IMG/VR virus record: IMGVR_UViG_3300027921_000016
Location: 33,849 to 97,848 of that record
Strand: one strand, 5' to 3'
Length of the DNA stretch: 64,000 nt
Origin: a virus
Shown: one piece after another, positions 1,161 through 50,552 of the stretch
Layout: every line of letters begins with the position of its first letter
Position numbering within the stretch: position 1 is the stretch's first letter
Position numbers and translations under genes: made by a program
The notes under the pieces: model-generated
What the model was told of the DNA's origin: nothing
The model's database searches: none
Seen by the model: only the letters and a program-made list of their open reading frames with translations

Positions 1161-1868
1161 TCAGCGTGGTTCAGGCGGTTTGATGTCCACGAACACCGCC
1201 CGGCCAGTGGGGTCTGTAAAGTTGGCATCAAAATTGCCGGCATCACCGCAGCCACTCAGTACCCTGTTGATGGTATCCACACTCAGGGCCTTGACCTCCT
1301 TACGGGTACCGAGGTCCCCGAGCAATGCGGCAAGGTTCTTGCGGTCAATGTACATGCGCTGGTACCCCCCATAGTACCCGTTGCCGACGGAGAAGCGGGT
1401 GGCAAAGTACACCGCACCGTACTTGTCGGCGAGACTGTCCGCACTGTACCCCCAGGCCTCTATGGAGGGGAAGAACTTGACCTTGACCTCGCTCCCGAAC
1501 TTCCTGACCATCACTGCCGTGAACACGTCGCTGGCCGCCAGGGTGGCTGCCACCAGATAGCTGTTGTAGGAGGTAATCCCGTTACGCCAGTGTGGCTGAG
1601 TAGTGGACACCGCACGGTACGTGCGGTGGGCCTGTGAGGGGTGGACGGCCTTGGTACGTGGGGTACGGGCAGGCGCCTTTGGTTTCGCAGTCGCAACAGG
1701 CTTGGGCCTGTCGTAGGTAGCATCCGTGGTCGAGAGCACGGACTTTATCTCACAGCCTGGATATTTTTTGAACACCCCCTGCTTGGCACCACGATCAGTG
1801 TTGGCAGCGACGACGATGACCTTGGCTTTACCCTTCAGGTCGGGGAAGAACACGATTTGGAAGTTCAT
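1161..1868 (-). CDS. Hypothetical protein
   Basis: 235-aa ORF, AAGGAG RBS, in operon. Confidence 0.75.
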   Translation of the reverse strand: MNFQIVFFPDLKGKAKVIVVAANTDRGAKQGVFKKYPGCEIKSVLSTTDATYDRPKPVATAKPKAPARTPRTKAVHPSQAHRTYRAVSTTQPHWRNGITSYNSYLVAATLAASDVFTAVMVRKFGSEVKVKFFPSIEAWGYSADSLADKYGAVYFATRFSVGNGYYGGYQRMYIDRKNLAALLGDLGTRKEVKALSVDTINRVLSGCGDAGNFDANFTDPTGRAVFVDIKPPEPR

Positions 1869-1870
1869 GA

Positions 1871-2275
1871 TTACTCCTTTAGAAGTTCGATGTTTCGCCG
1901 GGGTAGGCCTACCAGGTCCCAGGTTTCAGAGTCGAGAAAACACTTACATTTTGCCAGAGCCCGTTTGGCTTCAGCTCCCCCGAAGGCTCGGGCAAATCCT
2001 TCCTTGGTGACTACCGACCACGTACCCGTAGGGTACACCCGATCTTGCAACGGGGGCTGGTCGGGACTGGCTGGCGTAGGGTTGGCTTCGATACAGGTGA
2101 TACCCTGGGCCATGAGCTTCTGACACTCAACACATGGCTCGTAGCTGGTGACCATGTGCATCGGTGCTTCTTTCGGATAAGCGGCGCCCAAGAGTGCGAC
2201 TTCGCCCGTCTCCTTGCCGCACCAAAAGCAGGTAGACAGTGTGGGGTTAAGCCCGTACTTGGCAGAGAGTCTCAT
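1871..2275 (-). CDS. Hypothetical Zn-finger protein
   Basis: KYGLNPTLSTCFWCGKE...YEPCVEC; two CxxC pairs. Confidence 0.75.
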   Translation of the reverse strand: MRLSAKYGLNPTLSTCFWCGKETGEVALLGAAYPKEAPMHMVTSYEPCVECQKLMAQGITCIEANPTPASPDQPPLQDRVYPTGTWSVVTKEGFARAFGGAEAKRALAKCKCFLDSETWDLVGLPRRNIELLKE

Positions 2276-2535
2276 GTCATGGACCTCCCGAAAAACGAGC
2301 CATCACCACCCAAGGAGTACTCCTCCTTGGCTACCGTGTCTGGGTCAGTGATGCACCCAGAGCAGACCACCATGTACTGGCCCATGCAGTCCCCACTGTC
2401 GATCGTGTGATGAAGTTCCTTGAGGTTGTCAAACTTCAGGTGCCCAGGGCCATCCGAAAGTACGGTAACCATGATCGCGGTCTTGCGGACGCAATGGTCA
2501 CTCATCTCCGCCTCCAGTCTAGGGGTTGTGCTCAA
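2272..2535 (-). CDS. Hypothetical protein (start uncertain)
   Basis: ORF overlapping both neighbours. Confidence 0.6.
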   Translation of the reverse strand: MSTTPRLEAEMSDHCVRKTAIMVTVLSDGPGHLKFDNLKELHHTIDSGDCMGQYMVVCSGCITDPDTVAKEEYSLGGDGSFFGRSMT

Positions 2536-2995
2536 TGGCCAGCGGAGGGGTGAACACCACCACAGACTTGTCCAAGCCTAGGCTTGTACTGAAGAATGCC
2601 GCCAACTCGGTGTTGTCGCCCCACTCAGCGTCCATGCCGATCTCTTTCTGGATTTGGGTGATAGCCCACGCCAGAAGAACTTCAACTACCTTGTGTTCGA
2701 TGCAGGCGGCGGCGAACTGTTCTGCTGATGCCCTCATGTCGAGCACCGGAATTTCCACGAGATCGTAGTGCATGCCCGCAACGTGTGCACCGTCCATCTC
2801 GAACGGGGAGTTTTTGCGGAAATTGAGGTACTTGGGTGCCTTTTCAGGGTACCCTAGGGTGGCAAACCTGACCACCACATCCGAGTACTTTTCAGAAGGC
2901 GCCATCGACACCCCGAAGCAGACTGCCTGGGTACAGGACAGTACTGCATACTTATTGGAACTGCCAAAAAACACTTTCAATGTCATGATCTCCAC
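2519..2995 (-). CDS. Hypothetical early protein
   Basis: ORF directly downstream of promoter and CAATGGAGTG leader. Confidence 0.7.
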   Translation of the reverse strand: MEIMTLKVFFGSSNKYAVLSCTQAVCFGVSMAPSEKYSDVVVRFATLGYPEKAPKYLNFRKNSPFEMDGAHVAGMHYDLVEIPVLDMRASAEQFAAACIEHKVVEVLLAWAITQIQKEIGMDAEWGDNTELAAFFSTSLGLDKSVVVFTPPLAIEHNP

Positions 2996-3019
2996 TCCAT
3001 TGGGTTGAACTACAATCTT

Positions 3020-3047
3020 AGATTAACACAATCAAGCAATTTGTCAA
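3020..3047 (-). promoter_or_regulatory. Sigma70-type early promoter
   Basis: TTGACA-16-TAATCT; one of 8 similar promoters. Confidence 0.75.
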
Positions 3048-3050
3048 TAA

Positions 3051-4241
3051 TTATTTGCAATCAATTGCAGGTAGATAGTGGTGCTGCTTGATGGTCGCGT
3101 ACACGGTCTCCGCTACCTCCGAGTGACTGAACTCAACCTGTTGTTGGTCCTCAAGCGCCTGCCTGAGAGTCTGCTGTTGCTTCATGCTTGGGCTCTTACC
3201 CATCACACTTTGGAAGCACTTGACAGCAAATATCTTGGCATCGCCTGAGCTTAACTTCGGGATATGCAGCACCAGATCGAGGCGACCTGGGCGGTACAAT
3301 TCAACTGGCAAGACCTTCAGATCGTTGGTGGTCATGACCGTGATTACCCGGCTACGGTGGTCGGACAACCACCAAAGCAGTTGGCTCATTATCCTGGCGG
3401 TCACACCTGAATCGTCCTGGCCGCCAAAGATTTTCTCCGCTTCATCAATGAGCACCACACATGGGCTCTCGCGTTCCAACATGTTCAAGCTGCGTGCTAC
3501 TCGTGACTCCGATTCACCTATGTACTTATTTAGGGTAGTAGCGATGTCCAGACGGAACAGCGGTACCTGCCAGTGATTGGCGATGGCCTTGGCCGCCGTG
3601 CTCTTACCTACTCCTGGAGCACCTGCAAGCATCAAGCCCCTGGGCACCAGTTTGTCCGGCACCCCCTGGGTGAGAAAATACTGACCATTCAACTTGAGCC
3701 ACTGTTCCAGCTTCTCCGGGTACAGGTAGAAGTCCAGGTCGGTGTCCACCACCTGAAGGCCCTGGATGGCACCCCCAACCATGGTACGAGTTCGCCTGAT
3801 CTCCGGTAGAGCCAGACTCCCTACCCTGGCCATGGTCAGCTGCACGATCTCACTGGCGGCCTTCAGAGACAGCCCTCGCAGGGCCTGGACAATCGCAGGC
3901 ACATCCTCCGGGAGGGTGAACTCCTTGAGATAGTCCGAGACCATGCTCTGGGGCGTTGGCAACTCCCCGGCCATGAACATAAATGAACTCTTGTCCACGG
4001 GGTTGATGATCACCAACGTGGATTCGGCTTCGACCAGCTTCTTGTACACCTGGGCATCCAGGATATCCAGGTTCTCGCTCACGTACACGTAGGGTCCCAG
4101 GGTTGCACTAGACAGCTTACTGGCCGGCCAGGGAACCACCTTCTTTCCTGTGAGCAACTGCAAGGACGTAGTGTAGTTCAGCAGGTCATCCGTGTACACC
4201 CCGATCACCGGAATATGGGCGTTGTAGGCTAAATCAAAAAT
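3051..4241 (-). CDS. AAA+ ATPase (Ycf46/SpoVK-like), probable ATT start
   Basis: Walker A GAPGVGKS, Walker B VVLIDEAEK, TTN sensor, RPGRLD Arg finger; frame open to ATT at 4241, 8 nt after AAGGAG. Confidence 0.85.
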   Translation of the reverse strand: MFDLAYNAHIPVIGVYTDDLLNYTTSLQLLTGKKVVPWPASKLSSATLGPYVYVSENLDILDAQVYKKLVEAESTLVIINPVDKSSFMFMAGELPTPQSMVSDYLKEFTLPEDVPAIVQALRGLSLKAASEIVQLTMARVGSLALPEIRRTRTMVGGAIQGLQVVDTDLDFYLYPEKLEQWLKLNGQYFLTQGVPDKLVPRGLMLAGAPGVGKSTAAKAIANHWQVPLFRLDIATTLNKYIGESESRVARSLNMLERESPCVVLIDEAEKIFGGQDDSGVTARIMSQLLWWLSDHRSRVITVMTTNDLKVLPVELYRPGRLDLVLHIPKLSSGDAKIFAVKCFQSVMGKSPSMKQQQTLRQALEDQQQVEFSHSEVAETVYATIKQHHYLPAIDCK

Positions 4242-4819
4242 GGCAGCTTCTCCTTATTAGATCGGTAGTGGCTTACCAGGGTTCCCCTGGGTATACCGTT
4301 GGCCAACGCAACCTCCTCCTGAGTGCCTTTACCAGCTAACCACTCCCCTACCGCTTTATCTAAGGCAGCCTTGGTGTACTTCTTTGGGGTCTTCTGTAGA
4401 GGGGCTCTCCCTTTCTTACGCATGTCCTCCATATTATCCTGGTGTGTGCCAAGGAATAAATGCGACGGATTTATACAGCCAGGAGTGTCGCACTTATGGC
4501 AAACAGACAGTCCTTCTTCTATAGGACCTACACTAACCTCCCAGGTTACCCTATGAGCTAGGCACAGTTTGCCCAGGTAGTACAGAACCCCATACCCGGC
4601 ACTATTTGTAGCGCCTAACCACCTATAGCACCCCGTTTTCTGGTCCACCTCGTAATTACCCAGTCGGGTGGTGATGTCGGGGTACTTGCCTCTAGTGTGG
4701 TGGTTATGAAGGTACTTCAGGGGGGCACCTTTAACCTGCCCCAGCTTGGCGTTAGTTTTCTTAGCCAACGGAGCAGGGTTACCACACCCACAGGCGCACA
4801 AGACAAGTTCAAACATCAT
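4229..4819 (-). CDS. HNH homing endonuclease
   Basis: CACGCG N-terminus; LAHRV...VCHKCDTPGCINPSHLFLGTHQDNM HNH motif; AGGAGG RBS. Confidence 0.9.
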   Translation of the reverse strand: MMFELVLCACGCGNPAPLAKKTNAKLGQVKGAPLKYLHNHHTRGKYPDITTRLGNYEVDQKTGCYRWLGATNSAGYGVLYYLGKLCLAHRVTWEVSVGPIEEGLSVCHKCDTPGCINPSHLFLGTHQDNMEDMRKKGRAPLQKTPKKYTKAALDKAVGEWLAGKGTQEEVALANGIPRGTLVSHYRSNKEKLPFLI

Positions 4820-4968
4820 CAGCCTCCTGACCAAAGCCAACTCGGTCAGGTTGGTTGGGGGGATTGAGAGCGAGCTTCAAGGCCTTCAACTCTTCGGCGG
4901 TGAGGTCCATAACTGTTACCTCAACGGGAGTACCCTCATCCTGGCCATAGCACCAGTACCCCGCCATA

Positions 4969-5259
4969 TTAGTCCCCTCCTTTGGAGCTTGCCTGGTGGC
5001 ATAGGGCTGCTCGATCCCGCCACGCTGCCCACATCATGCGGGTACGCATGGCCAGAGGACAAACGTAGGTTGATCCTTGGAGCTCCCCTTGGCCAGTATA
5101 CGATTCCCCGTCCCAGTTTGCACCCAATACCCAGCAATGCCCCTGCACCCATGCCTCGAAGGCAAGGCGTTCAGCCTCAACAACTGGGCCGCCTACAGCT
5201 CCCATATCCCGCGCAGCCTCTACACTAGGCGGGTCAGAAAAACCGGCAGGGTTACTCAT
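4969..5259 (-). CDS. Hypothetical protein next to an attC half-site
   Basis: GGAGA RBS, MSNPAG...ERLAFEAW...MWAAWRDRAAL. Confidence 0.6.
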   Translation of the reverse strand: MSNPAGFSDPPSVEAARDMGAVGGPVVEAERLAFEAWVQGHCWVLGANWDGESYTGQGELQGSTYVCPLAMRTRMMWAAWRDRAALCHQASSKGGD

Positions 5260-5266
5260 TTCTCCA

Positions 5267-5293
5267 TGCCCAACAGACGCTTCAACGCGGACA
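5267..5293 (+). mobile_element. attC left-arm remnant
   Basis: TGCCAAC-agacgc-TTCAAC-GCGGAC resembles R''-L'' of attC; no right arm. Confidence 0.45.
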
Positions 5294-5410
5294 GAACAAC
5301 GTGGTACCCTGTATGGGTGATGGACTCCAGTACCCGAAGGTACTGGCCATTCCTGTTCAAAAATACGAATGGCATTTGTCACTCCTTGACGTGGTGATTT
5401 CCTATTTCTG

Positions 5411-5438
5411 AATATACCACAATCCCGGAGTTTGTCAA
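5411..5438 (-). promoter_or_regulatory. Sigma70-type early promoter
   Basis: TTGACA-16-TATATT with TG extension. Confidence 0.8.
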
Positions 5439-5796
5439 CCTTTAATGCAATTGATTGCAGGGCCGAAGCCCCTACGGGGCGGCCCCAAGTTTGCAACAAC
5501 TTACCCTGTGATACGCGTGTGATGGTACTTAGATGGCCGCAACGTGAGGCACAGCGCCAGAGAAAGGGCGTGGGGCAGACCGGCTACCAGAAAGAGCGGG
5601 GGCAACAGGCACTGGGGGTGCCGTCAACATAAGCGCATCGAGGCGTGGGTCAGGCACAAAAACCATTGGGATCACGCACACAGCCACGTAGGTTGCAGCA
5701 GGGCAAGGGCCTGGCAGGTACACGGCATACCCAGCATTGAAGCTTAAGAAGAACGAGATGATGAACGTCATGGCGCTTGCCTAGGTTAATCAGGTA

Positions 5797-6399
5797 CTAC
5801 AATGGCGGGGGTGCAATCGCACGAGTACGATCCCACTCAGCTTTGTTGGCTACATACCAGTCTTGCCATGCTCGGAGGAGCTTTCCTCGGGTGACGCATT
5901 CGATGTTGTTTTGGGCGTTTGTTCTTGCGAGATCAGAGAGCTTAACGGTTGAGGGGGAACTACCATCTGGTGGAGGACGGCGGGAAATTCCGGGAAGCTC
6001 CGCTGCGAGGGGCAGGTCGTGCACCCAGACAACACCATTGGTAATAGTACAAGCAGCATCATCTTTGACGGAGACATAGTAGGGTATCCTCTTGATCACA
6101 GTTACGGTTTCTTTCTGAACATCCCGATGGGCTACCAGACTCTTCTCCAGGTCCTTGAGCAAGGTCGTGTTGGCGTCCTGCATGTTCTTGATCTGGACTC
6201 CAACGATACGCTCCCGCTCCTTCACCTGAGTGGTGTAGGTCGTCAGCTTGTCCTCCCACGAACTGCTGCCTGTGTACCAACCCAAGGCGAACGCAAGTAC
6301 ATAGCCCAAGAGCAGCACCATAGCCAGCGCAACCGGGGCGAGAATTTTTGCGAGGGCGTTACTTGCGCCAAGCCGTACCATCAGAGAGGAGAGCATCAC
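5797..6399 (-). CDS. Rz: i-spanin (Rz-like)
   Basis: N-terminal TM helix, coiled coil, embedded lipoprotein gene. Confidence 0.75.
   Translation of the reverse strand: MMLSSLMVRLGASNALAKILAPVALAMVLLLGYVLAFALGWYTGSSSWEDKLTTYTTQVKERERIVGVQIKNMQDANTTLLKDLEKSLVAHRDVQKETVTVIKRIPYYVSVKDDAACTITNGVVWVHDLPLAAELPGISRRPPPDGSSPSTVKLSDLARTNAQNNIECVTRGKLLRAWQDWYVANKAEWDRTRAIAPPPL
5850..6062 (-). CDS. Rz1: o-spanin lipoprotein nested in Rz
   Basis: MMLLVLLPMVLSG-C lipobox, Pro-rich mature part, alternate frame within Rz. Confidence 0.75.
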   Translation of the reverse strand: MMLLVLLPMVLSGCTTCPSQRSFPEFPAVLHQMVVPPQPLSSLISQEQTPKTTSNASPEESSSEHGKTGM

Positions 6400-45275: not shown

Positions 45276-45697
45276 AGAACCTCCGTCAGAGGACCGCCAA
45301 CATCGGTACTCGGCTGACTAGCTAGTCTTTCAGCCCCCACACGCTCTTCCTCCCGTATGAGCAGCTCCAGGCGTGCAAGGGCATTCCAGGCTGAATGGGC
45401 CGCGTGCATGAGGCCGGACTCCAGGTCATAGGTCTCCCCTCTAGCCTCTGACAATAGGTGCCTGTACATGGCGTCTGTGTATCGCTCTTGCGCGCGGTCT
45501 ACTCTCAACCAGTTACCAGGAGCGTATTTCTGTGCTCCGAAGGTGGTCACCATAGCCACAGCGGTCAGTGCTCGTGCGAAGTCTTGCATCCTCAAGCCTA
45601 CCCTGGGCTTGCCCTGGTCGTACTTACGGCCGTGATCCAGTGCACCTACATCTTGTGGTGCGGTACACTGGGCAGAGGGGTGAATGGTATTAGACAC
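45272..45697 (-). CDS. dATP/dGTP diphosphohydrolase (DUF5664-like)
   Basis: GRKYDQGKP...FGAQKYAPGNW...AMYRH...DLESGLMHAAHSAWNAL. Confidence 0.85.
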   Translation of the reverse strand: MSNTIHPSAQCTAPQDVGALDHGRKYDQGKPRVGLRMQDFARALTAVAMVTTFGAQKYAPGNWLRVDRAQERYTDAMYRHLLSEARGETYDLESGLMHAAHSAWNALARLELLIREEERVGAERLASQPSTDVGGPLTEVL

Positions 45698-48600
45698 GTT
45701 CGTAGCCCTTTAGGTACGCCATATCCAATCCAATCTTGGCATCGGCGGTAAACTTCAATTGAGGATTCCATCCCACCAAATGGAAAGGCAGGTTCTCCAT
45801 TATCTCCAATTGCTTGGGCAAGATGATGTCTACCTGATCCTCAGGGATATAGTTGTAGGCCGCGTCGTGAATTGCCCCAAAACAGGGGGAGACCTTGGAC
45901 AACCCCTGCTTGTGCTCTAGGGCGATAGTCCATATCAGCATGTCACTGAGAGTGCCTTGGATGGGAGAGTTGATAGCCTGCCGCTCGGCCCCACTTGCAA
46001 CCTCCCTATTGGGGGAAGTGATCAACGGCAGGTGGCGGATACGGCCAAGGGGGGACCGTACTTGGCCCTCTTTCTTGGCCATAGCCTTGTAAGAACTGTG
46101 GTACGTGAGCAGCCTTGGGTACGTGGCAAAAAACGCAGCATGAAAGGCCGTGGCTTCTTCCATAGTGAAGTACACCCCGTAGTTCTTAAAGGCGTAAATC
46201 TGGAAGCCCTCAGCCCCCATCCCGTACAGCAGACCAAAATTTCCGGGCTTGCCCTGCTGGCGGTACTTGGCGAACAACTCCGGGTCTGATACCTTGAGGG
46301 CCATCATCTCCTCGTATGTGAGGCCCGCAGCCTTGCCCCCGGTAATCACGTGCAGGTCCTTGCCGTCCTTATACGCCTGGAGCATCACCTGCTCATTGGC
46401 TACACAGGCAACGACCTTCAACTCCCCCTGGGAGTAGTCGCGCTCCACCACCAGATGCCCATCAGGGGCAATGTAGCAACGACGGATGCGCTTGGCCCAT
46501 TTCGTATGCTTGGGCACGGTGTTGTGCACCACCACCCCGTTAGCCACAAATGAGTGGCTGCCTTCGATGGTCAGGTCGAAGGTTTCACACTCCCCAGCAG
46601 GCACTACCGCTACTACTTTAATCTCTTGGAAGACATCCCGGTCCCAAGGGTCTCTTTCATCAAGGCTTGCTCCATCGGCATCCCCACGGATAACCGATAG
46701 TGCAACCGTCCCCGACTGATCCCGGCTTCTGACGCCCACTCGGCTTCGGTCTTGGTCTGCCCATTCCACGCGATCTTCTTGGAGTTCGTCTTGTTGCTCC
46801 CCTGTTGCTTGGGCGTAGCCCAAACACAGTTTCCCGGTTCGTAGTTGCTGTTCACGTCCAACCGCTCCACCGACATACCCTTGCAAGGCTTCTCCCCCAT
46901 GTCTTCCAGGAACTTGGAGAACTCCACCCACCGGGGGCACAACGTGATGCCACGACCCCCGTACCTCGGCCAATCCTTGCTGGTTGGACTGGTGCAACGA
47001 CTCTTCATGGCCACCCATGAGTGGTACGTTGGACTGGTGTACCCCTGCGTCCGATGTTGAACCCCTGTCCCTTTTAGCGGCATAACAAATATCCCCCGGT
47101 AAGAGTTGATCAGTACGAACCCACCCGCGAGAGGTCAGGTAGGGATGGTTCTCGGTACTGCCTACGATTATACCCGTTTCAAACGAAACGTCAAACACAG
47201 GTTGAACCCCATTGCGGTACACCCCAACAACCTCACGCCATGCTCCGGTATGCGTCAGTACCCTGTATGACTTGCCGCCCTCATACCCCATAACAATGGA
47301 CTCTATAGAAACGGCACCAGTATCGGTAAGCACCAAACTGCTGCCTCTCAAACACTGGAAGGTGGGCGCGTGGCAGGAGAGCCTACCGGTGTTGTGAGTT
47401 ACGATCCCACCAGTGACATGACTCTCATCAACCTCGACGGTAAGGCCATAAGTACGCACAGGAGTGGTGTCAAGTACAACCCGTACAACCTCAGACAAGG
47501 AGAATTTTGCCTCTTTCCCCCCGTAGTCTCTAGCCTCCCCTCGCTGTCCTGCCCGCACCGCGCGAATGAGCCTTTCACACACCCCAAACCTTTCAGACAA
47601 AGCCTTATTAGCCCACCCATGGTGGCGAGTAGCCACGGGCTGTGCCCGAATAAAATCAACAGCAGCTTGGCACAGTTTAGCCTGGGCACCGGTCCTACGA
47701 TTCATGGTCCCGTGGTTCACAGCGTCCTGCCGGTTACCCTTTGAAGTACCCCACCGTAGGTTACCCAACGTGTCATCCCAAGCAATGCCATTAAGATGGC
47801 GAATCTCGTCTCCTTTTCCTGGGACGTGGAACACCCTGGCCATAAGGCCGTGCACAGAGAAATCTTTTCGATCTTCCCCCCGAGATTGAGCGCCATTCCT
47901 GTACAAACAAACCTTCAAGTGCCCCCATTTTTCTTTAGGGTTCTGGGTAAGGAACTTACCCGTCTTGGTGTTGAATACCCGCCCCCAAGTACTCACCCTA
48001 AAGTCCTCCCAGTCGGGTACTACCTTCCACTCTTCTTTTCCACTGTGCACTACGATTGGGTCCCCAGGTTCAAGGTCTATAGCCTGCACCCAACAAACAC
48101 CACCTCCTACGAGGTACTTATGGTTCGGGGTTGTTCTTAGCTCCAACCCATTCGCTAAAGTGACGGTGACAATGGGCTGTACCCCGTTATCAACCGTAGC
48201 GGTAACCCGTCGAATCCTTCCGGTATGGGAAATAACTTGGTCGCCTACCTGAACACTCTCAACCGGTAGATACCCTCGATCAGTTAGCACCAACTCCCCG
48301 GCGGGCATACAGTTGGTTCCCCCTTCTCCTTCATCCTTGTTCCCGGCAAAGAACCAGTAACTTGGGTGCATGCGCCCATCCGAGCGTATGTGCTTCATGA
48401 ACCCCACCACGTAAGTACTCAGGGTCTTCGTGGCACTAGCATAGTCCTTGATCACGTTAATGAAGGCCTTGGCCTCCGGCACGTCCTCGAACTGTAGCAG
48501 GTGGTCCAAGCCTGTACTAGGGGCCTTGGTCCTCTCCGTAAACACCTTTGGTTTCAAGTTCAACCCCATGGGGCTGAACATGTAGTCGGTGATCATGCTG

Positions 48601-50552
48601 GCTTTGGTGAGGTTCAACCCGCCTAATTTGTCCGGGTCATAGTGCTTGGCCACCACCCGCCCACCGAGTACCCCCTTGGCCTGTGCAATCAATTGCAGGA
48701 TTTCAGTATTGAGATCGGCCTCCAACTCCAAAAGCCGTTCCCTGGAAACTAGGACTCCACCTTGCTCTACGGACTCAAACGCTCTGGCAGCCGGGTGCAT
48801 GATGTTCACGTAGAAACTGGTGAGCTGCCTGTCCTTGAGCAACTCCTGTTTCATTACATCCGCCACCTGCAAGGTAGCGTCGGAGTCCCCTCCCGCGTAG
48901 GACAGCAGCTTCTCAGGGGGGACGAGATCAATCCGTGACTTGTCTACTGTACGGTCAAATTCATCGCTGTTATGGCTGGCTAAGCCTTCGGCAATAAAAG
49001 TTGACGTGGAAGTTTTAATACTGACCACCTCCTGCACCCCAACAGGGGTTGCAGACACTACAAAATCATGAGTGTACTCCTGTGGGAGTGTGCACCCCCA
49101 CCAGTCCCCGTGATCAAGTAATCTGATAGGCCGGTACTTCTGGAGCACTAGCAAACCGCCGTAAGAACCCCTACAGGTTACATTATGACAACTCTTTCCG
49201 GCAGTTATATGCAAGGTAAAATCGTTTCCGGCTATAGACAGCGCCCTGTCCAAGACTAACCCCGGCTTCTGTGCAAATCCTAACCTGAATGAGTTTGAAT
49301 GGGCCGCCTTAGTGGTCCACCCCTCCCCGTCCAGCACCCCACTAAACCACCCGGAATCAAAATCGTCACCAGGAGGTATAACCTCGGTGACTCTTTTTAT
49401 TCTCTTACCCACCAACAACGGGTCCTCTGTCCTCATCCACCGAAGATTGCCTCCCTTCTCCCCCATGTTGACTAACCACATGTGATTGGCACTAACCCGC
49501 ATTTTAGTACCAGAAGACATCACTATGTCGTAACAAAGCAAGTTCAGTCTCTGCACTGACAATACCGCAGATTTCTTAATTACCCTCCTGCCTGTACTAG
49601 GGGAATGCTCATCAAAACCAACCAGGGTATCTCCCACCTTAACGCCGCTGGCCTTAGACCAGGATAGGTCCCCCATCCACAATCTTGTGTCGGGGGCCAC
49701 ACAGTAGCCCGCTAAGGAAGGTACATACACCTTGGCGTGCACGTCCAGGCCATTACTCCGGTTCTCGTCAAGAAGGGAACCCACCAACGTGGTGTCGAAC
49801 ACAAAGTTCGTACACACCAATCCCCCACGCACCCACAGCCAGTGAAGATCGTACTTCAGGTTGGCGCCCTTCATCTTCACCTTGGGGGTGGTGAGTATCC
49901 AGGCCAAATCAGCTACATGAAGGAGAGAAGAAAACCACGCCTCTTCTCTACCCCGGTTCTGAAACCGCAAAACTGCGGACTCCCCTTTTACAACCGACAT
50001 CTGAATGCTCACGACATAGGCTCCAGGATGGGTCAGGGTTGGTTTGAGGTACGGGTCGAGCCCTACGGTCTCTAAGTCCAGGGCCACATCAACCTGGGTT
50101 TGAGTGCCCTCGTACTGATCCTCGATGAACTTCCGTAGGGTATCGAACGAGTGCACATACTCGTACTTCCCATACACCGGGGCCATACTTCCTGTTTCGT
50201 GATACCTGAGGGCCATGCTAGTGTCGCACTGCAAATCCACATAATGTGCGTAGTCCACCACCTGAACGCCGGGGCTGTAGCTCACCAAGGCCCTCATCTT
50301 GGTCAGAGGCAGGGAGATTGGTTGATTGCGCAACCCCGTTACCTTCCTGCCTTTTGGAACGAGCTTCTCCTGCGCCAGCGCCTCCAGGGGCTCCTGCCCT
50401 AGACAAAACAAAACCCCTTCCAGCCCTTGCAGGCTTGGGAAGGAGCTGAAATCGTTGAGTACCTTTATCGGTATGTGCGGGTAGGCCTTAAATTGCACCC
50501 CCAGAGACTTCTGGAGTTTTGGTTGATCCATCTTTGTCCAGATCAGAAACAT
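45690..50552 (-). CDS. polA: Family A DNA polymerase (UDG-like N-terminus, 3'-5' exonuclease) with three inteins
   Basis: LDLET exo I, NLKYD, TGRLS, DYSQGEL motif A, K..NFGLLYG motif B, IHDA motif C. Confidence 0.95.
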   Translation of the reverse strand: MFLIWTKMDQPKLQKSLGVQFKAYPHIPIKVLNDFSSFPSLQGLEGVLFCLGQEPLEALAQEKLVPKGRKVTGLRNQPISLPLTKMRALVSYSPGVQVVDYAHYVDLQCDTSMALRYHETGSMAPVYGKYEYVHSFDTLRKFIEDQYEGTQTQVDVALDLETVGLDPYLKPTLTHPGAYVVSIQMSVVKGESAVLRFQNRGREEAWFSSLLHVADLAWILTTPKVKMKGANLKYDLHWLWVRGGLVCTNFVFDTTLVGSLLDENRSNGLDVHAKVYVPSLAGYCVAPDTRLWMGDLSWSKASGVKVGDTLVGFDEHSPSTGRRVIKKSAVLSVQRLNLLCYDIVMSSGTKMRVSANHMWLVNMGEKGGNLRWMRTEDPLLVGKRIKRVTEVIPPGDDFDSGWFSGVLDGEGWTTKAAHSNSFRLGFAQKPGLVLDRALSIAGNDFTLHITAGKSCHNVTCRGSYGGLLVLQKYRPIRLLDHGDWWGCTLPQEYTHDFVVSATPVGVQEVVSIKTSTSTFIAEGLASHNSDEFDRTVDKSRIDLVPPEKLLSYAGGDSDATLQVADVMKQELLKDRQLTSFYVNIMHPAARAFESVEQGGVLVSRERLLELEADLNTEILQLIAQAKGVLGGRVVAKHYDPDKLGGLNLTKASMITDYMFSPMGLNLKPKVFTERTKAPSTGLDHLLQFEDVPEAKAFINVIKDYASATKTLSTYVVGFMKHIRSDGRMHPSYWFFAGNKDEGEGGTNCMPAGELVLTDRGYLPVESVQVGDQVISHTGRIRRVTATVDNGVQPIVTVTLANGLELRTTPNHKYLVGGGVCWVQAIDLEPGDPIVVHSGKEEWKVVPDWEDFRVSTWGRVFNTKTGKFLTQNPKEKWGHLKVCLYRNGAQSRGEDRKDFSVHGLMARVFHVPGKGDEIRHLNGIAWDDTLGNLRWGTSKGNRQDAVNHGTMNRRTGAQAKLCQAAVDFIRAQPVATRHHGWANKALSERFGVCERLIRAVRAGQRGEARDYGGKEAKFSLSEVVRVVLDTTPVRTYGLTVEVDESHVTGGIVTHNTGRLSCHAPTFQCLRGSSLVLTDTGAVSIESIVMGYEGGKSYRVLTHTGAWREVVGVYRNGVQPVFDVSFETGIIVGSTENHPYLTSRGWVRTDQLLPGDICYAAKRDRGSTSDAGVHQSNVPLMGGHEESLHQSNQQGLAEVRGSWHHVVPPVGGVLQVPGRHGGEALQGYVGGAVGREQQLRTGKLCLGYAQATGEQQDELQEDRVEWADQDRSRVGVRSRDQSGTVALSVIRGDADGASLDERDPWDRDVFQEIKVVAVVPAGECETFDLTIEGSHSFVANGVVVHNTVPKHTKWAKRIRRCYIAPDGHLVVERDYSQGELKVVACVANEQVMLQAYKDGKDLHVITGGKAAGLTYEEMMALKVSDPELFAKYRQQGKPGNFGLLYGMGAEGFQIYAFKNYGVYFTMEEATAFHAAFFATYPRLLTYHSSYKAMAKKEGQVRSPLGRIRHLPLITSPNREVASGAERQAINSPIQGTLSDMLIWTIALEHKQGLSKVSPCFGAIHDAAYNYIPEDQVDIILPKQLEIMENLPFHLVGWNPQLKFTADAKIGLDMAYLKGYERV
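46521..47354 (-). mobile_element. Polymerase intein 3 (278 aa)
   Basis: CLRGSSLV...TENHP...FDLTIEGSHSFVANGVVVHN/T. Confidence 0.9.
46613..47083 (-). CDS. HNH-type endonuclease nested out-of-frame in intein 3
   Basis: YHSWVAMKSRC...YGGRGI...ERLDVNSNYEPGNCVWAT. Confidence 0.8.
   Translation of the reverse strand: MPLKGTGVQHRTQGYTSPTYHSWVAMKSRCTSPTSKDWPRYGGRGITLCPRWVEFSKFLEDMGEKPCKGMSVERLDVNSNYEPGNCVWATPKQQGSNKTNSKKIAWNGQTKTEAEWASEAGISRGRLHYRLSVGMPMEQALMKETLGTGMSSKRLK
47391..48311 (-). mobile_element. Polymerase intein 2 (307 aa) with NUMOD4/HNH endonuclease
   Basis: CMPAGELV...EEWKVVP...VSTWGRV...HLNG...NLRWGT...VTHN/T. Confidence 0.9.
48969..49703 (-). mobile_element. Polymerase intein 1 (245 aa) with single LAGLIDADG motif
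   Basis: CVAPDTRL...FSGVLDGEG...FIAEGLASHN/S. Confidence 0.9.

Follow-up and report, generated by a model that had tools for sequence, protein, structure and literature searches.

A polymerase gene with an overprinted intein

The DNA analysed here, referred to as the window, is a stretch of 64,000 nucleotides (bases 33849-97848) from the complete 97,848-bp genome of an uncultured phage with direct terminal repeats (IMG/VR record IMGVR_UViG_3300027921_000016). Its family-A DNA polymerase gene contains 3 inteins, and the third of these, intein 3, is the subject of this report: the central part of its coding sequence also encodes, on the same strand in another reading frame, a protein belonging to a large phage family annotated as HNH endonuclease. 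Positions in Table 1 and in the text are those of the window. The polymerase open reading frame (ORF) has Pfam matches to DNA_pol_A (E=2.6e-46), to the 3'-5' exonuclease domain DNA_pol_A_exo1, and to Intein_splicing, and the combined length of its exteins equals that of intein-free homologues (790-807 aa). The host gene is one continuous ORF of 1620 codons and is not broken into 2 ORFs in the manner of split inteins or fractured genes.

Intein 3 is delimited by the junctions FQ|CLRGSS...VVHN|TVPKH, which place its insertion point between the Gln and Thr of a conserved polymerase motif, DPAFQ|T(I/V)PKHTKW. The motif is contiguous, as DPAFQ|TIPKHTKW, in about 20 intein-free homologues. Comparison with the Pfam Intein_splicing model (PF14890) gave a match above the model cut-off (E=9.6e-10), and the residues found to be invariant across 6 homologues are C1, T67-x-N69-H70 in block B, D260 in block F, H267, H277, N278, and the +1 Thr of the downstream extein. 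The element has the catalytic residues, profile match, and HINT fold of a class 1 intein, and the host motif is restored on its removal. Its intact catalytic residues, together with the essential nature of the polymerase, suggest that intein 3 splices and restores the polymerase.

The intein's 2 splicing domains and the region between them look very different in the AlphaFold2 (AF2) model. The N-terminal and C-terminal domains are predicted with a per-residue confidence (pLDDT) above 93, whereas the middle of the intein frame, residues 97-233, is predicted to be disordered (pLDDT about 28) and gave no family match in Pfam searches. The intein frame appears to encode a mini-intein plus a spacer that is simply kept open, with no constraint at the protein level.

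Table 1. Features of the polymerase gene and of the overprinted endonuclease-like gene (window positions)
Feature	Positions	Strand	Description
Family-A DNA polymerase precursor	45690..50552	minus	1620 aa; three inteins; exteins total 790 aa
Intein 1	48969..49703	minus	residues 284-528, 245 aa; GVLDGEG stretch, LAGLIDADG-like by eye
Intein 2	47391..48311	minus	residues 748-1054; NUMOD4 and HNH_3 in frame
Intein 3	46521..47354	minus	residues 1067-1344, 278 aa; class-1 type; endonuclease out of frame
N-terminal splicing (HINT) domain of intein 3	47067..47354	minus	intein residues 1-96; AF2 pLDDT 93-97, beta-rich, conserved in homologues
Intein-frame spacer of intein 3	46656..47066	minus	intein residues 97-233, ~137 aa; present in the precursor; AF2 pLDDT about 26-34
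C-terminal splicing domain of intein 3	46521..46655	minus	intein residues 234-278 (45 aa); blocks F and G, VVHN end; AF2 pLDDT 93-97
Endonuclease-like gene P0002	46613..47083	minus	156 codons and TAG; +1 frame relative to the intein; covers intein codons 91-248
Putative translation start of the endonuclease	47081..47097	minus	GGGGGA, 8 nt, ATG
Sigma-70-like promoter match	47167..47194	minus	TTGACG, 16 nt, TATAAT (11/12); 83 nt upstream of the endonuclease ATG

A member of a large phage family in the +1 frame

Both frames are open across the full 471 nucleotides of their overlap. The product of the shifted frame, P0002, matches the PHROG family phrog_3377, labelled "HNH endonuclease," with E=3.3e-47, and 4 more PHROG families with the same label. 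The shifted frame is a real coding sequence, as shown by these matches and by the 2756 homologues of P0002, which are of similar length (85-273 aa). Matches occur in 947 GenBank phage records, and among the matches listed the annotation is either HNH endonuclease or hypothetical protein. A free-standing context was confirmed in the one region inspected, that of Ralstonia phage Cimandef, in which the family gene adjoins terL. A Ralstonia phage terL gene had been suspected of containing an overprinted copy, but the copy proved to be a normal gene beside it. At another locus (L074:5816-6094), a homologue with 43% identity over residues 3-98 begins at the end of an intein-free polymerase ORF (3453-5822); this copy looks free-standing, beside the gene that is invaded in its relatives.

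Recurrence of the layout and selection on two frames

The same two-frame layout was found at the same polymerase site in 8 independently assembled loci: the window, L075, L033, L088, L002, L093, L086, and L109, of which L002 and L086 are partial. In every one of them the polymerase frame runs uninterrupted through the intein, with the endonuclease ORF in the +1 phase, and identity between the endonucleases of these assemblies ranges from 40% to 81%.

With this offset between the frames, the intein frame can acquire a stop only where an endonuclease codon has T at its third position and the next codon starts with AA, AG, or GA. The window has 42 third positions at risk in this way, none of which is T (8.7 expected); T is found at 19 of the 113 remaining endonuclease third positions. 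The probability of an open intein frame, given the endonuclease amino acids and the codon usage of the phage, is 2.6e-5. For 6 relatives the corresponding values are 8e-6, 4e-2, 4e-6, 6e-8, 4e-10, and 4e-3, and the probability of an open host frame is 1.7e-18 in L109 and 7e-3 in a helicase gene, L052, to which we return below. Homologues located outside inteins have about 5.2 stops per 100 codons in the equivalent frame. That frame is open in only 4 of 47 viral loci, namely the L052 intein and 3 others (two duplicates), all 3 with a GC content of at least 0.64, and in 1 of 74 metagenome loci, the single case being the polymerase intein of L109. Chance does not account for both frames being open.

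The 2 frames also differ in how their encoded amino acids have changed. Pairwise Nei-Gojobori estimates across 5 loci gave ratios of nonsynonymous to synonymous substitution rates (dN/dS) of 0.09-0.21 in the endonuclease frame and, for the same nucleotides read in the intein frame, of 1.6-2.5; these values are indicative only, with dS near saturation for some pairs and a method that ignores the overlap, while the contrast between frames is clear. Nucleotide differences concentrate at the third codon positions of the endonuclease, as in a count of 36/27/75. Purifying selection acts on the endonuclease frame only, and the intein frame is just held stop-free. The lack of T at all 42 at-risk third positions is a codon-level signature of selection on a frame solely for its openness.

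A sequence-only reading of this DNA had placed an intein with normal splicing blocks at 46521-47354, had described its central ~150 aa as resembling no domain and both frames as open for ~470 bp, and had interpreted the whole as a dual-coding composite element. Its coordinates hold, and the rest is borne out by the invariant catalytic residues in 6 homologues, the low-confidence middle with no family match, the stop avoidance across the overlap, and the layout of the 8 polymerase loci with a selection signal in both frames. Frame-specific dN/dS, which that reading had proposed as a check, gave the contrast just described.

Putative expression signals of the endonuclease-like gene

An ATG with a GGxGA/GGAG-like element 6-10 nucleotides upstream is present in 7 of the 7 loci that include the start region. 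From this ATG and its Shine-Dalgarno (SD)-like element, separate translation of the endonuclease from its own start is plausible and would be its most likely mode of expression. The SD-like element overlies the conserved Gly-Asp codons of the intein, and the ATG is made up from the invariant Tyr91 codon, TAT, and the next G; TAT followed by G is found in all 7 loci.

A sigma-70-like match further upstream falls within the coding region of the intein's N-terminal domain and is a weak lead to a possible internal promoter for the endonuclease. This match is not conserved: a -10 hexamer at the same distance was found only in L033, and it is absent in L075, L088, and L093.

Distribution and proposed origin of the composite

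In a tree of C-terminal exteins, intein-bearing alleles are interspersed among intein-free ones. The window groups with 3 intein-free alleles (support 99/97), and L075 groups with another intein-free allele (97/98). For several pairs the endonuclease and intein are more similar than the exteins; between the window and L002, for example, identity is 79% for the endonuclease, 76% for the intein C-terminal domain, and 62% for the extein. The nucleotides flanking the insertion site, compared between intein-bearing and intein-free alleles for signs of immunity or co-conversion, had no systematic difference.

The insertion site itself is occupied in different ways in different phages. In L084 it holds a mini-intein with no endonuclease, and in L087 a canonical intein with an in-frame LAGLIDADG endonuclease. 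The overprinted endonucleases in turn belong to 2 distinct lineages. Those of the window, L075, L002, L033, and L088 form one clade with P0003-P0009 (SH-aLRT 99), while the endonuclease of L093, a longer protein with a Cys-rich N-terminal region, groups as sister to that of L052 (SH-aLRT 98). The latter locus encodes an SNF2-family helicase (PF00176 and Helicase_C; host ORF 1368-4022) that carries an unrelated intein, CIAYNT...IVHN|C; overprinted on the middle of this intein, again in the +1 frame, is a gene for a 232-aa protein of the endonuclease family (L052:2740-3435).

These patterns are consistent with a history in which mini-inteins repeatedly captured or exchanged endonuclease genes that were free-standing. 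As for the order of events, we infer that a free-standing homing endonuclease gene (HEG) invaded a mini-intein. Support for an invasion in this direction comes from the overwhelmingly free-standing nature of the family, from the mini-intein of L084 and the LAGLIDADG intein of L087 at the same site, and from the sharing of one slot by 2 endonuclease lineages, one of which is also found in the helicase intein.

A probable composite mobile element

Intein 3 is probably a composite mobile element in which a mini-intein and a separate endonuclease-like gene share the same DNA, with the intein spliced, the endonuclease translated separately, and the pair moving by homing. The two-frame architecture, its conservation, the selection on both frames, and the scattered intein distribution are shown by the analysis. 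In the proposed mechanism, the polymerase frame would yield the N-terminal half of the HINT domain (~96 aa), an unstructured spacer of ~137 aa, and the C-terminal half (45 aa), and excision of the intein would restore the DPAFQ-TVPKH motif. The +1 frame would yield a protein of its own, 156 aa long, from a large phage family whose genes are normally free-standing and carry the annotation HNH homing endonuclease. By analogy with intein and intron homing, P0002 would cut or nick the intein-free polymerase alleles of co-infecting relatives, and recombinational repair would then copy the intein and the endonuclease gene together.

The +1 phase could make such an arrangement easy to maintain. Codons of the forms NNT and NNC are always synonymous in the standard code. 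Host-frame stops in this phase would always take the form T|AA, T|AG, or T|GA, and each of them should be removable by a silent T-to-C change at the third position of an endonuclease codon because NNT and NNC are synonymous, a step of reasoning that is our own. The polymerase frame could in this way stay open at no cost to the endonuclease protein. A bolder extension, which we regard as possible but rather doubtful, is that proteins of the phrog_3377 type represent a new variety of beta-beta-alpha-metal homing endonuclease, with Arg replacing His, encoded by an overprinted cassette that hops between unrelated inteins and always takes the +1 phase for the sake of silent stop removal. If true, this would set a general rule for the colonisation of mini-inteins by free-standing HEGs. 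The constancy of the +1 phase is not statistically meaningful, as it represents only 2 or 3 independent captures.

The HNH-like product and alternative explanations

The AF2 model of P0002 has a mean pLDDT of 89.9 and consists of a helical N-terminal part, strands at residues 71-74 and 86-89, a helix at 91-96, and a small C-terminal helix-turn-helix (HTH), giving the core a beta-beta-alpha topology. The domain at the C-terminus is similar to small DNA-binding domains of the HTH type, among them the one in I-TevI (30% identity over 37 residues). Positions conserved in the family are E73, R74 (invariant), D76, N85, Q94, and N97, along with the cysteines C30, C49, and C86. Searches of the ESM Atlas with P0002 returned no clusters other than unnamed viral ones, the distant leads being families of the NUMOD type. 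When the family profile was compared by hhalign with the HNH_3 domain that intein 2 carries in frame, the match fell short of significance; its pairing set E-R against R-H. No characterised member of the family was found. P0002 is HNH-like by annotation and topology, short of established membership in the HNH family, and its nuclease activity is presumed by analogy. The sequence-only reading had called the product of 46613-47083 an intact-looking HNH-family protein; the ORF is complete, and the HNH label comes from the PHROG matches and a weak fold match.

A number of observations weigh against the reading of intein 3 as a homing composite or against parts of it. The scattered intein distribution could equally reflect repeated loss, and conservation of the start site is not independent proof of a translation start because the SD-like element and part of the ATG fall on intein codons that are themselves conserved. 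Most of the difficulty lies with the nuclease. P0002 had no Pfam match at E values up to 10, no Pfam HNH model matched any of 91 family members (91/91 negative), and there was neither an NCBIfam match nor a solved structure by PDB sequence search; the PHROG "HNH endonuclease" labels are the only ones that match, and neither a curated HNH profile nor the general-base histidine was found. The canonical position of this histidine is occupied by the invariant R74. The best structural match was the HNH restriction enzyme PacI (Z 6.3, root-mean-square deviation 4.0, 84 residues aligned), a level at which chance resemblance of folds is possible, and a Foldseek search against the PDB gave nothing at E below 0.5, with I-HmuI, Gme HNH, and PacI among the weak rows. 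Finally, in one long relative (P0229) the family domain is joined to a canonical C-terminal HNH domain (PF01844), and another (P0124) consists of 3 tandem copies of the whole module, so that the family core might be a DNA-binding module and not a catalytic one. An alternative is that P0002 is a real, selected protein and no nuclease: a sequence-specific DNA-binding, degenerate HNH protein (His to Arg), kept in the intein for some other role, for example in regulation or in the recruitment of another nuclease. The invariant Arg, the missing Pfam HNH matches, the weak fold matches, and a domain coupled to PF01844 or repeated in tandem, as DNA-binding modules often are, all favour it. We nevertheless consider this alternative unlikely, because more than 2700 relatives contain no other nuclease domain and behave as mobile free-standing genes across unrelated phages, because the gene occupies the exact endonuclease slot of 2 unrelated inteins, and because intein-bearing alleles lie scattered among intein-free ones. 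The beta-beta-alpha topology, the conserved Glu, Asp, and Asn, and the 3 Cys also fit a zinc-stabilised beta-beta-alpha-metal nuclease.

Other explanations concern the 2 frames and not the function of the product. The genome is a metagenome assembly, which raises the prospect that 2 compensating assembly indels, or a chance open frame, have displaced what is truly an in-frame domain of the intein. Compensating indel errors, which the sequence-only reading had named as its refutation, are very unlikely because 8 independent assemblies, with endonucleases only 40-81% identical, share the frame relation, and the stop avoidance at individual loci, with P from 4e-2 down to 2e-18, argues against a chance frame; taken as a whole, an artefact of this kind can be given almost no weight. 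An in-frame form was seen once among 160 longer homologues. This sequence (P0128), a JGI gene call of 274 aa, is differently built and has no N-terminal splicing domain: in one frame it joins the N-extein ...SCKAPAFQ, the residues TIWWQEMCV, a complete endonuclease 64% identical to P0002, and the start of the intein's C-terminal domain. Degeneration or rearrangement of an allele could account for it. Slightly less remote and still highly improbable is a programmed frameshift mechanism, in which ribosomes would enter the +1 frame and leave it again, so that the endonuclease would be made as part of the intein. The ORFs lie on the same strand, and their overlap begins right where the N-terminal splicing domain ends, as such a mechanism would have it. 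Two precise shifts would be required, however, and the +1 ORF ends in a stop at every locus and has its ATG and SD-like element wherever the region is included. Its relatives are free-standing genes, and selection holding the intein frame open would be pointless if ribosomes left that frame. No search for slippery sequences formed part of this assessment. A mini-intein and a separately translated endonuclease-like gene on the same DNA is the arrangement we favour over each of these alternatives.

Comparison with described inteins

The layout has already been described in preprints of the Gogarten group from 2025-26, and the window case does not differ from them in kind; it differs in host gene, insertion site, endonuclease family, and strength of statistical support. 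Gosselin, Arsenault, and Gogarten (bioRxiv 10.1101/2025.01.02.630785) reported inteins of actinophages in which an Endo VII-like endonuclease is read from a different frame, as well as antisense LAGLIDADG and Vsr-like endonucleases, and proposed invasion by free-standing HEGs. These actinophage inteins share several features with intein 3: the splicing blocks flank a same-strand endonuclease ORF read in a different frame, no stop interrupts the host frame, translation of the middle in the host frame gives nothing with a recognisable structure, and the endonuclease has relatives among the free-standing HEGs of phages. The actinophage endonuclease uses frame 3 and is of the Endo VII-like type (IPR004211), whereas in the window the host is a family-A polymerase of uncultured ~100-kb phages, the endonuclease belongs to a different family outside Pfam and occupies the +1 frame, and stop avoidance and frame-specific selection are quantified for the polymerase intein. 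With an ORF between the splicing blocks, an unstructured middle against a folded overprinted product, and free-standing relatives, intein 3 has the features of the out-of-frame-endonuclease class of inteins.

A cyanobacterial dnaX intein with an out-of-frame endonuclease, as outlined by Phillips, DeSimone, and Gogarten (10.64898/2026.09.14.751524), shares with the window case a scattered distribution at odds with the extein tree and the proposal that a mini-intein was invaded secondarily. In that outline the host is cellular and the host gene and intein are different ones, whereas the window is phage DNA. The ShiLan-type insertions of phage DNA methylases (Arsenault, Gosselin, and Gogarten 2025, Genes 16:178, PMC11855218) hide out-of-frame HNH genes in non-splicing sequence; like the window, they combine an out-of-frame endonuclease ORF with an open host frame and a proposed internal start. 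Such insertions have no splicing domains and are retained in the mature protein, whereas the spacer in the window is predicted to leave with a bona fide intein. The fractured genes outlined by Dassa et al. (2009) are split inteins separated by a free-standing HEG, so that a free-standing type of HEG sits at the position of the intein's endonuclease, as here; as presented there, the host ORF is divided into 2 genes whose products are spliced in trans, whereas the window's host ORF is continuous and is kept so by selection. Canonical inteins, such as intein 2 of the window and the LAGLIDADG intein of L087, are found in the same host gene (and, for L087, at the same site) and follow the same logic of a splicing domain plus an endonuclease. 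Their endonuclease is a domain of the intein polypeptide, in contrast to the separate gene in another frame in intein 3.

Intein 3 provides a well-supported and widely conserved example of a recently recognised class, that of inteins in which the homing endonuclease is encoded by an overlapping gene of its own. Gene callers report the polymerase alone for such loci, and the endonuclease is missed, so the element passes for a decaying intein or a mini-intein. The occurrence at one site of a mini-intein, a LAGLIDADG intein, and 2 overprinted lineages, one of them also present in a helicase intein, supports a picture of inteins and endonucleases as separable modules with a history of repeated association. 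A very large phage family that usually carries the HNH label and has no HNH histidine also merits biochemical testing.

Other inteins of the polymerase gene

Comparison of the region with GenBank phages by blastn found no DNA similarity. The 3 inteins of the window's polymerase gene together span 46521-49703 on the minus strand, and only 12 extein residues separate inteins 2 and 3 (TGRLSCHAPTFQ). Intein 1 had no Pfam match. A related polymerase (L087:1236-5867) also contains 3 inteins. The one at the position of intein 3 ends in SN rather than HN and has LAGLIDADG_3 in frame, and 12 residues upstream of it lies a 142-aa mini-intein that resembles intein 3 of the window, with 41-51% identity in the splicing domains.

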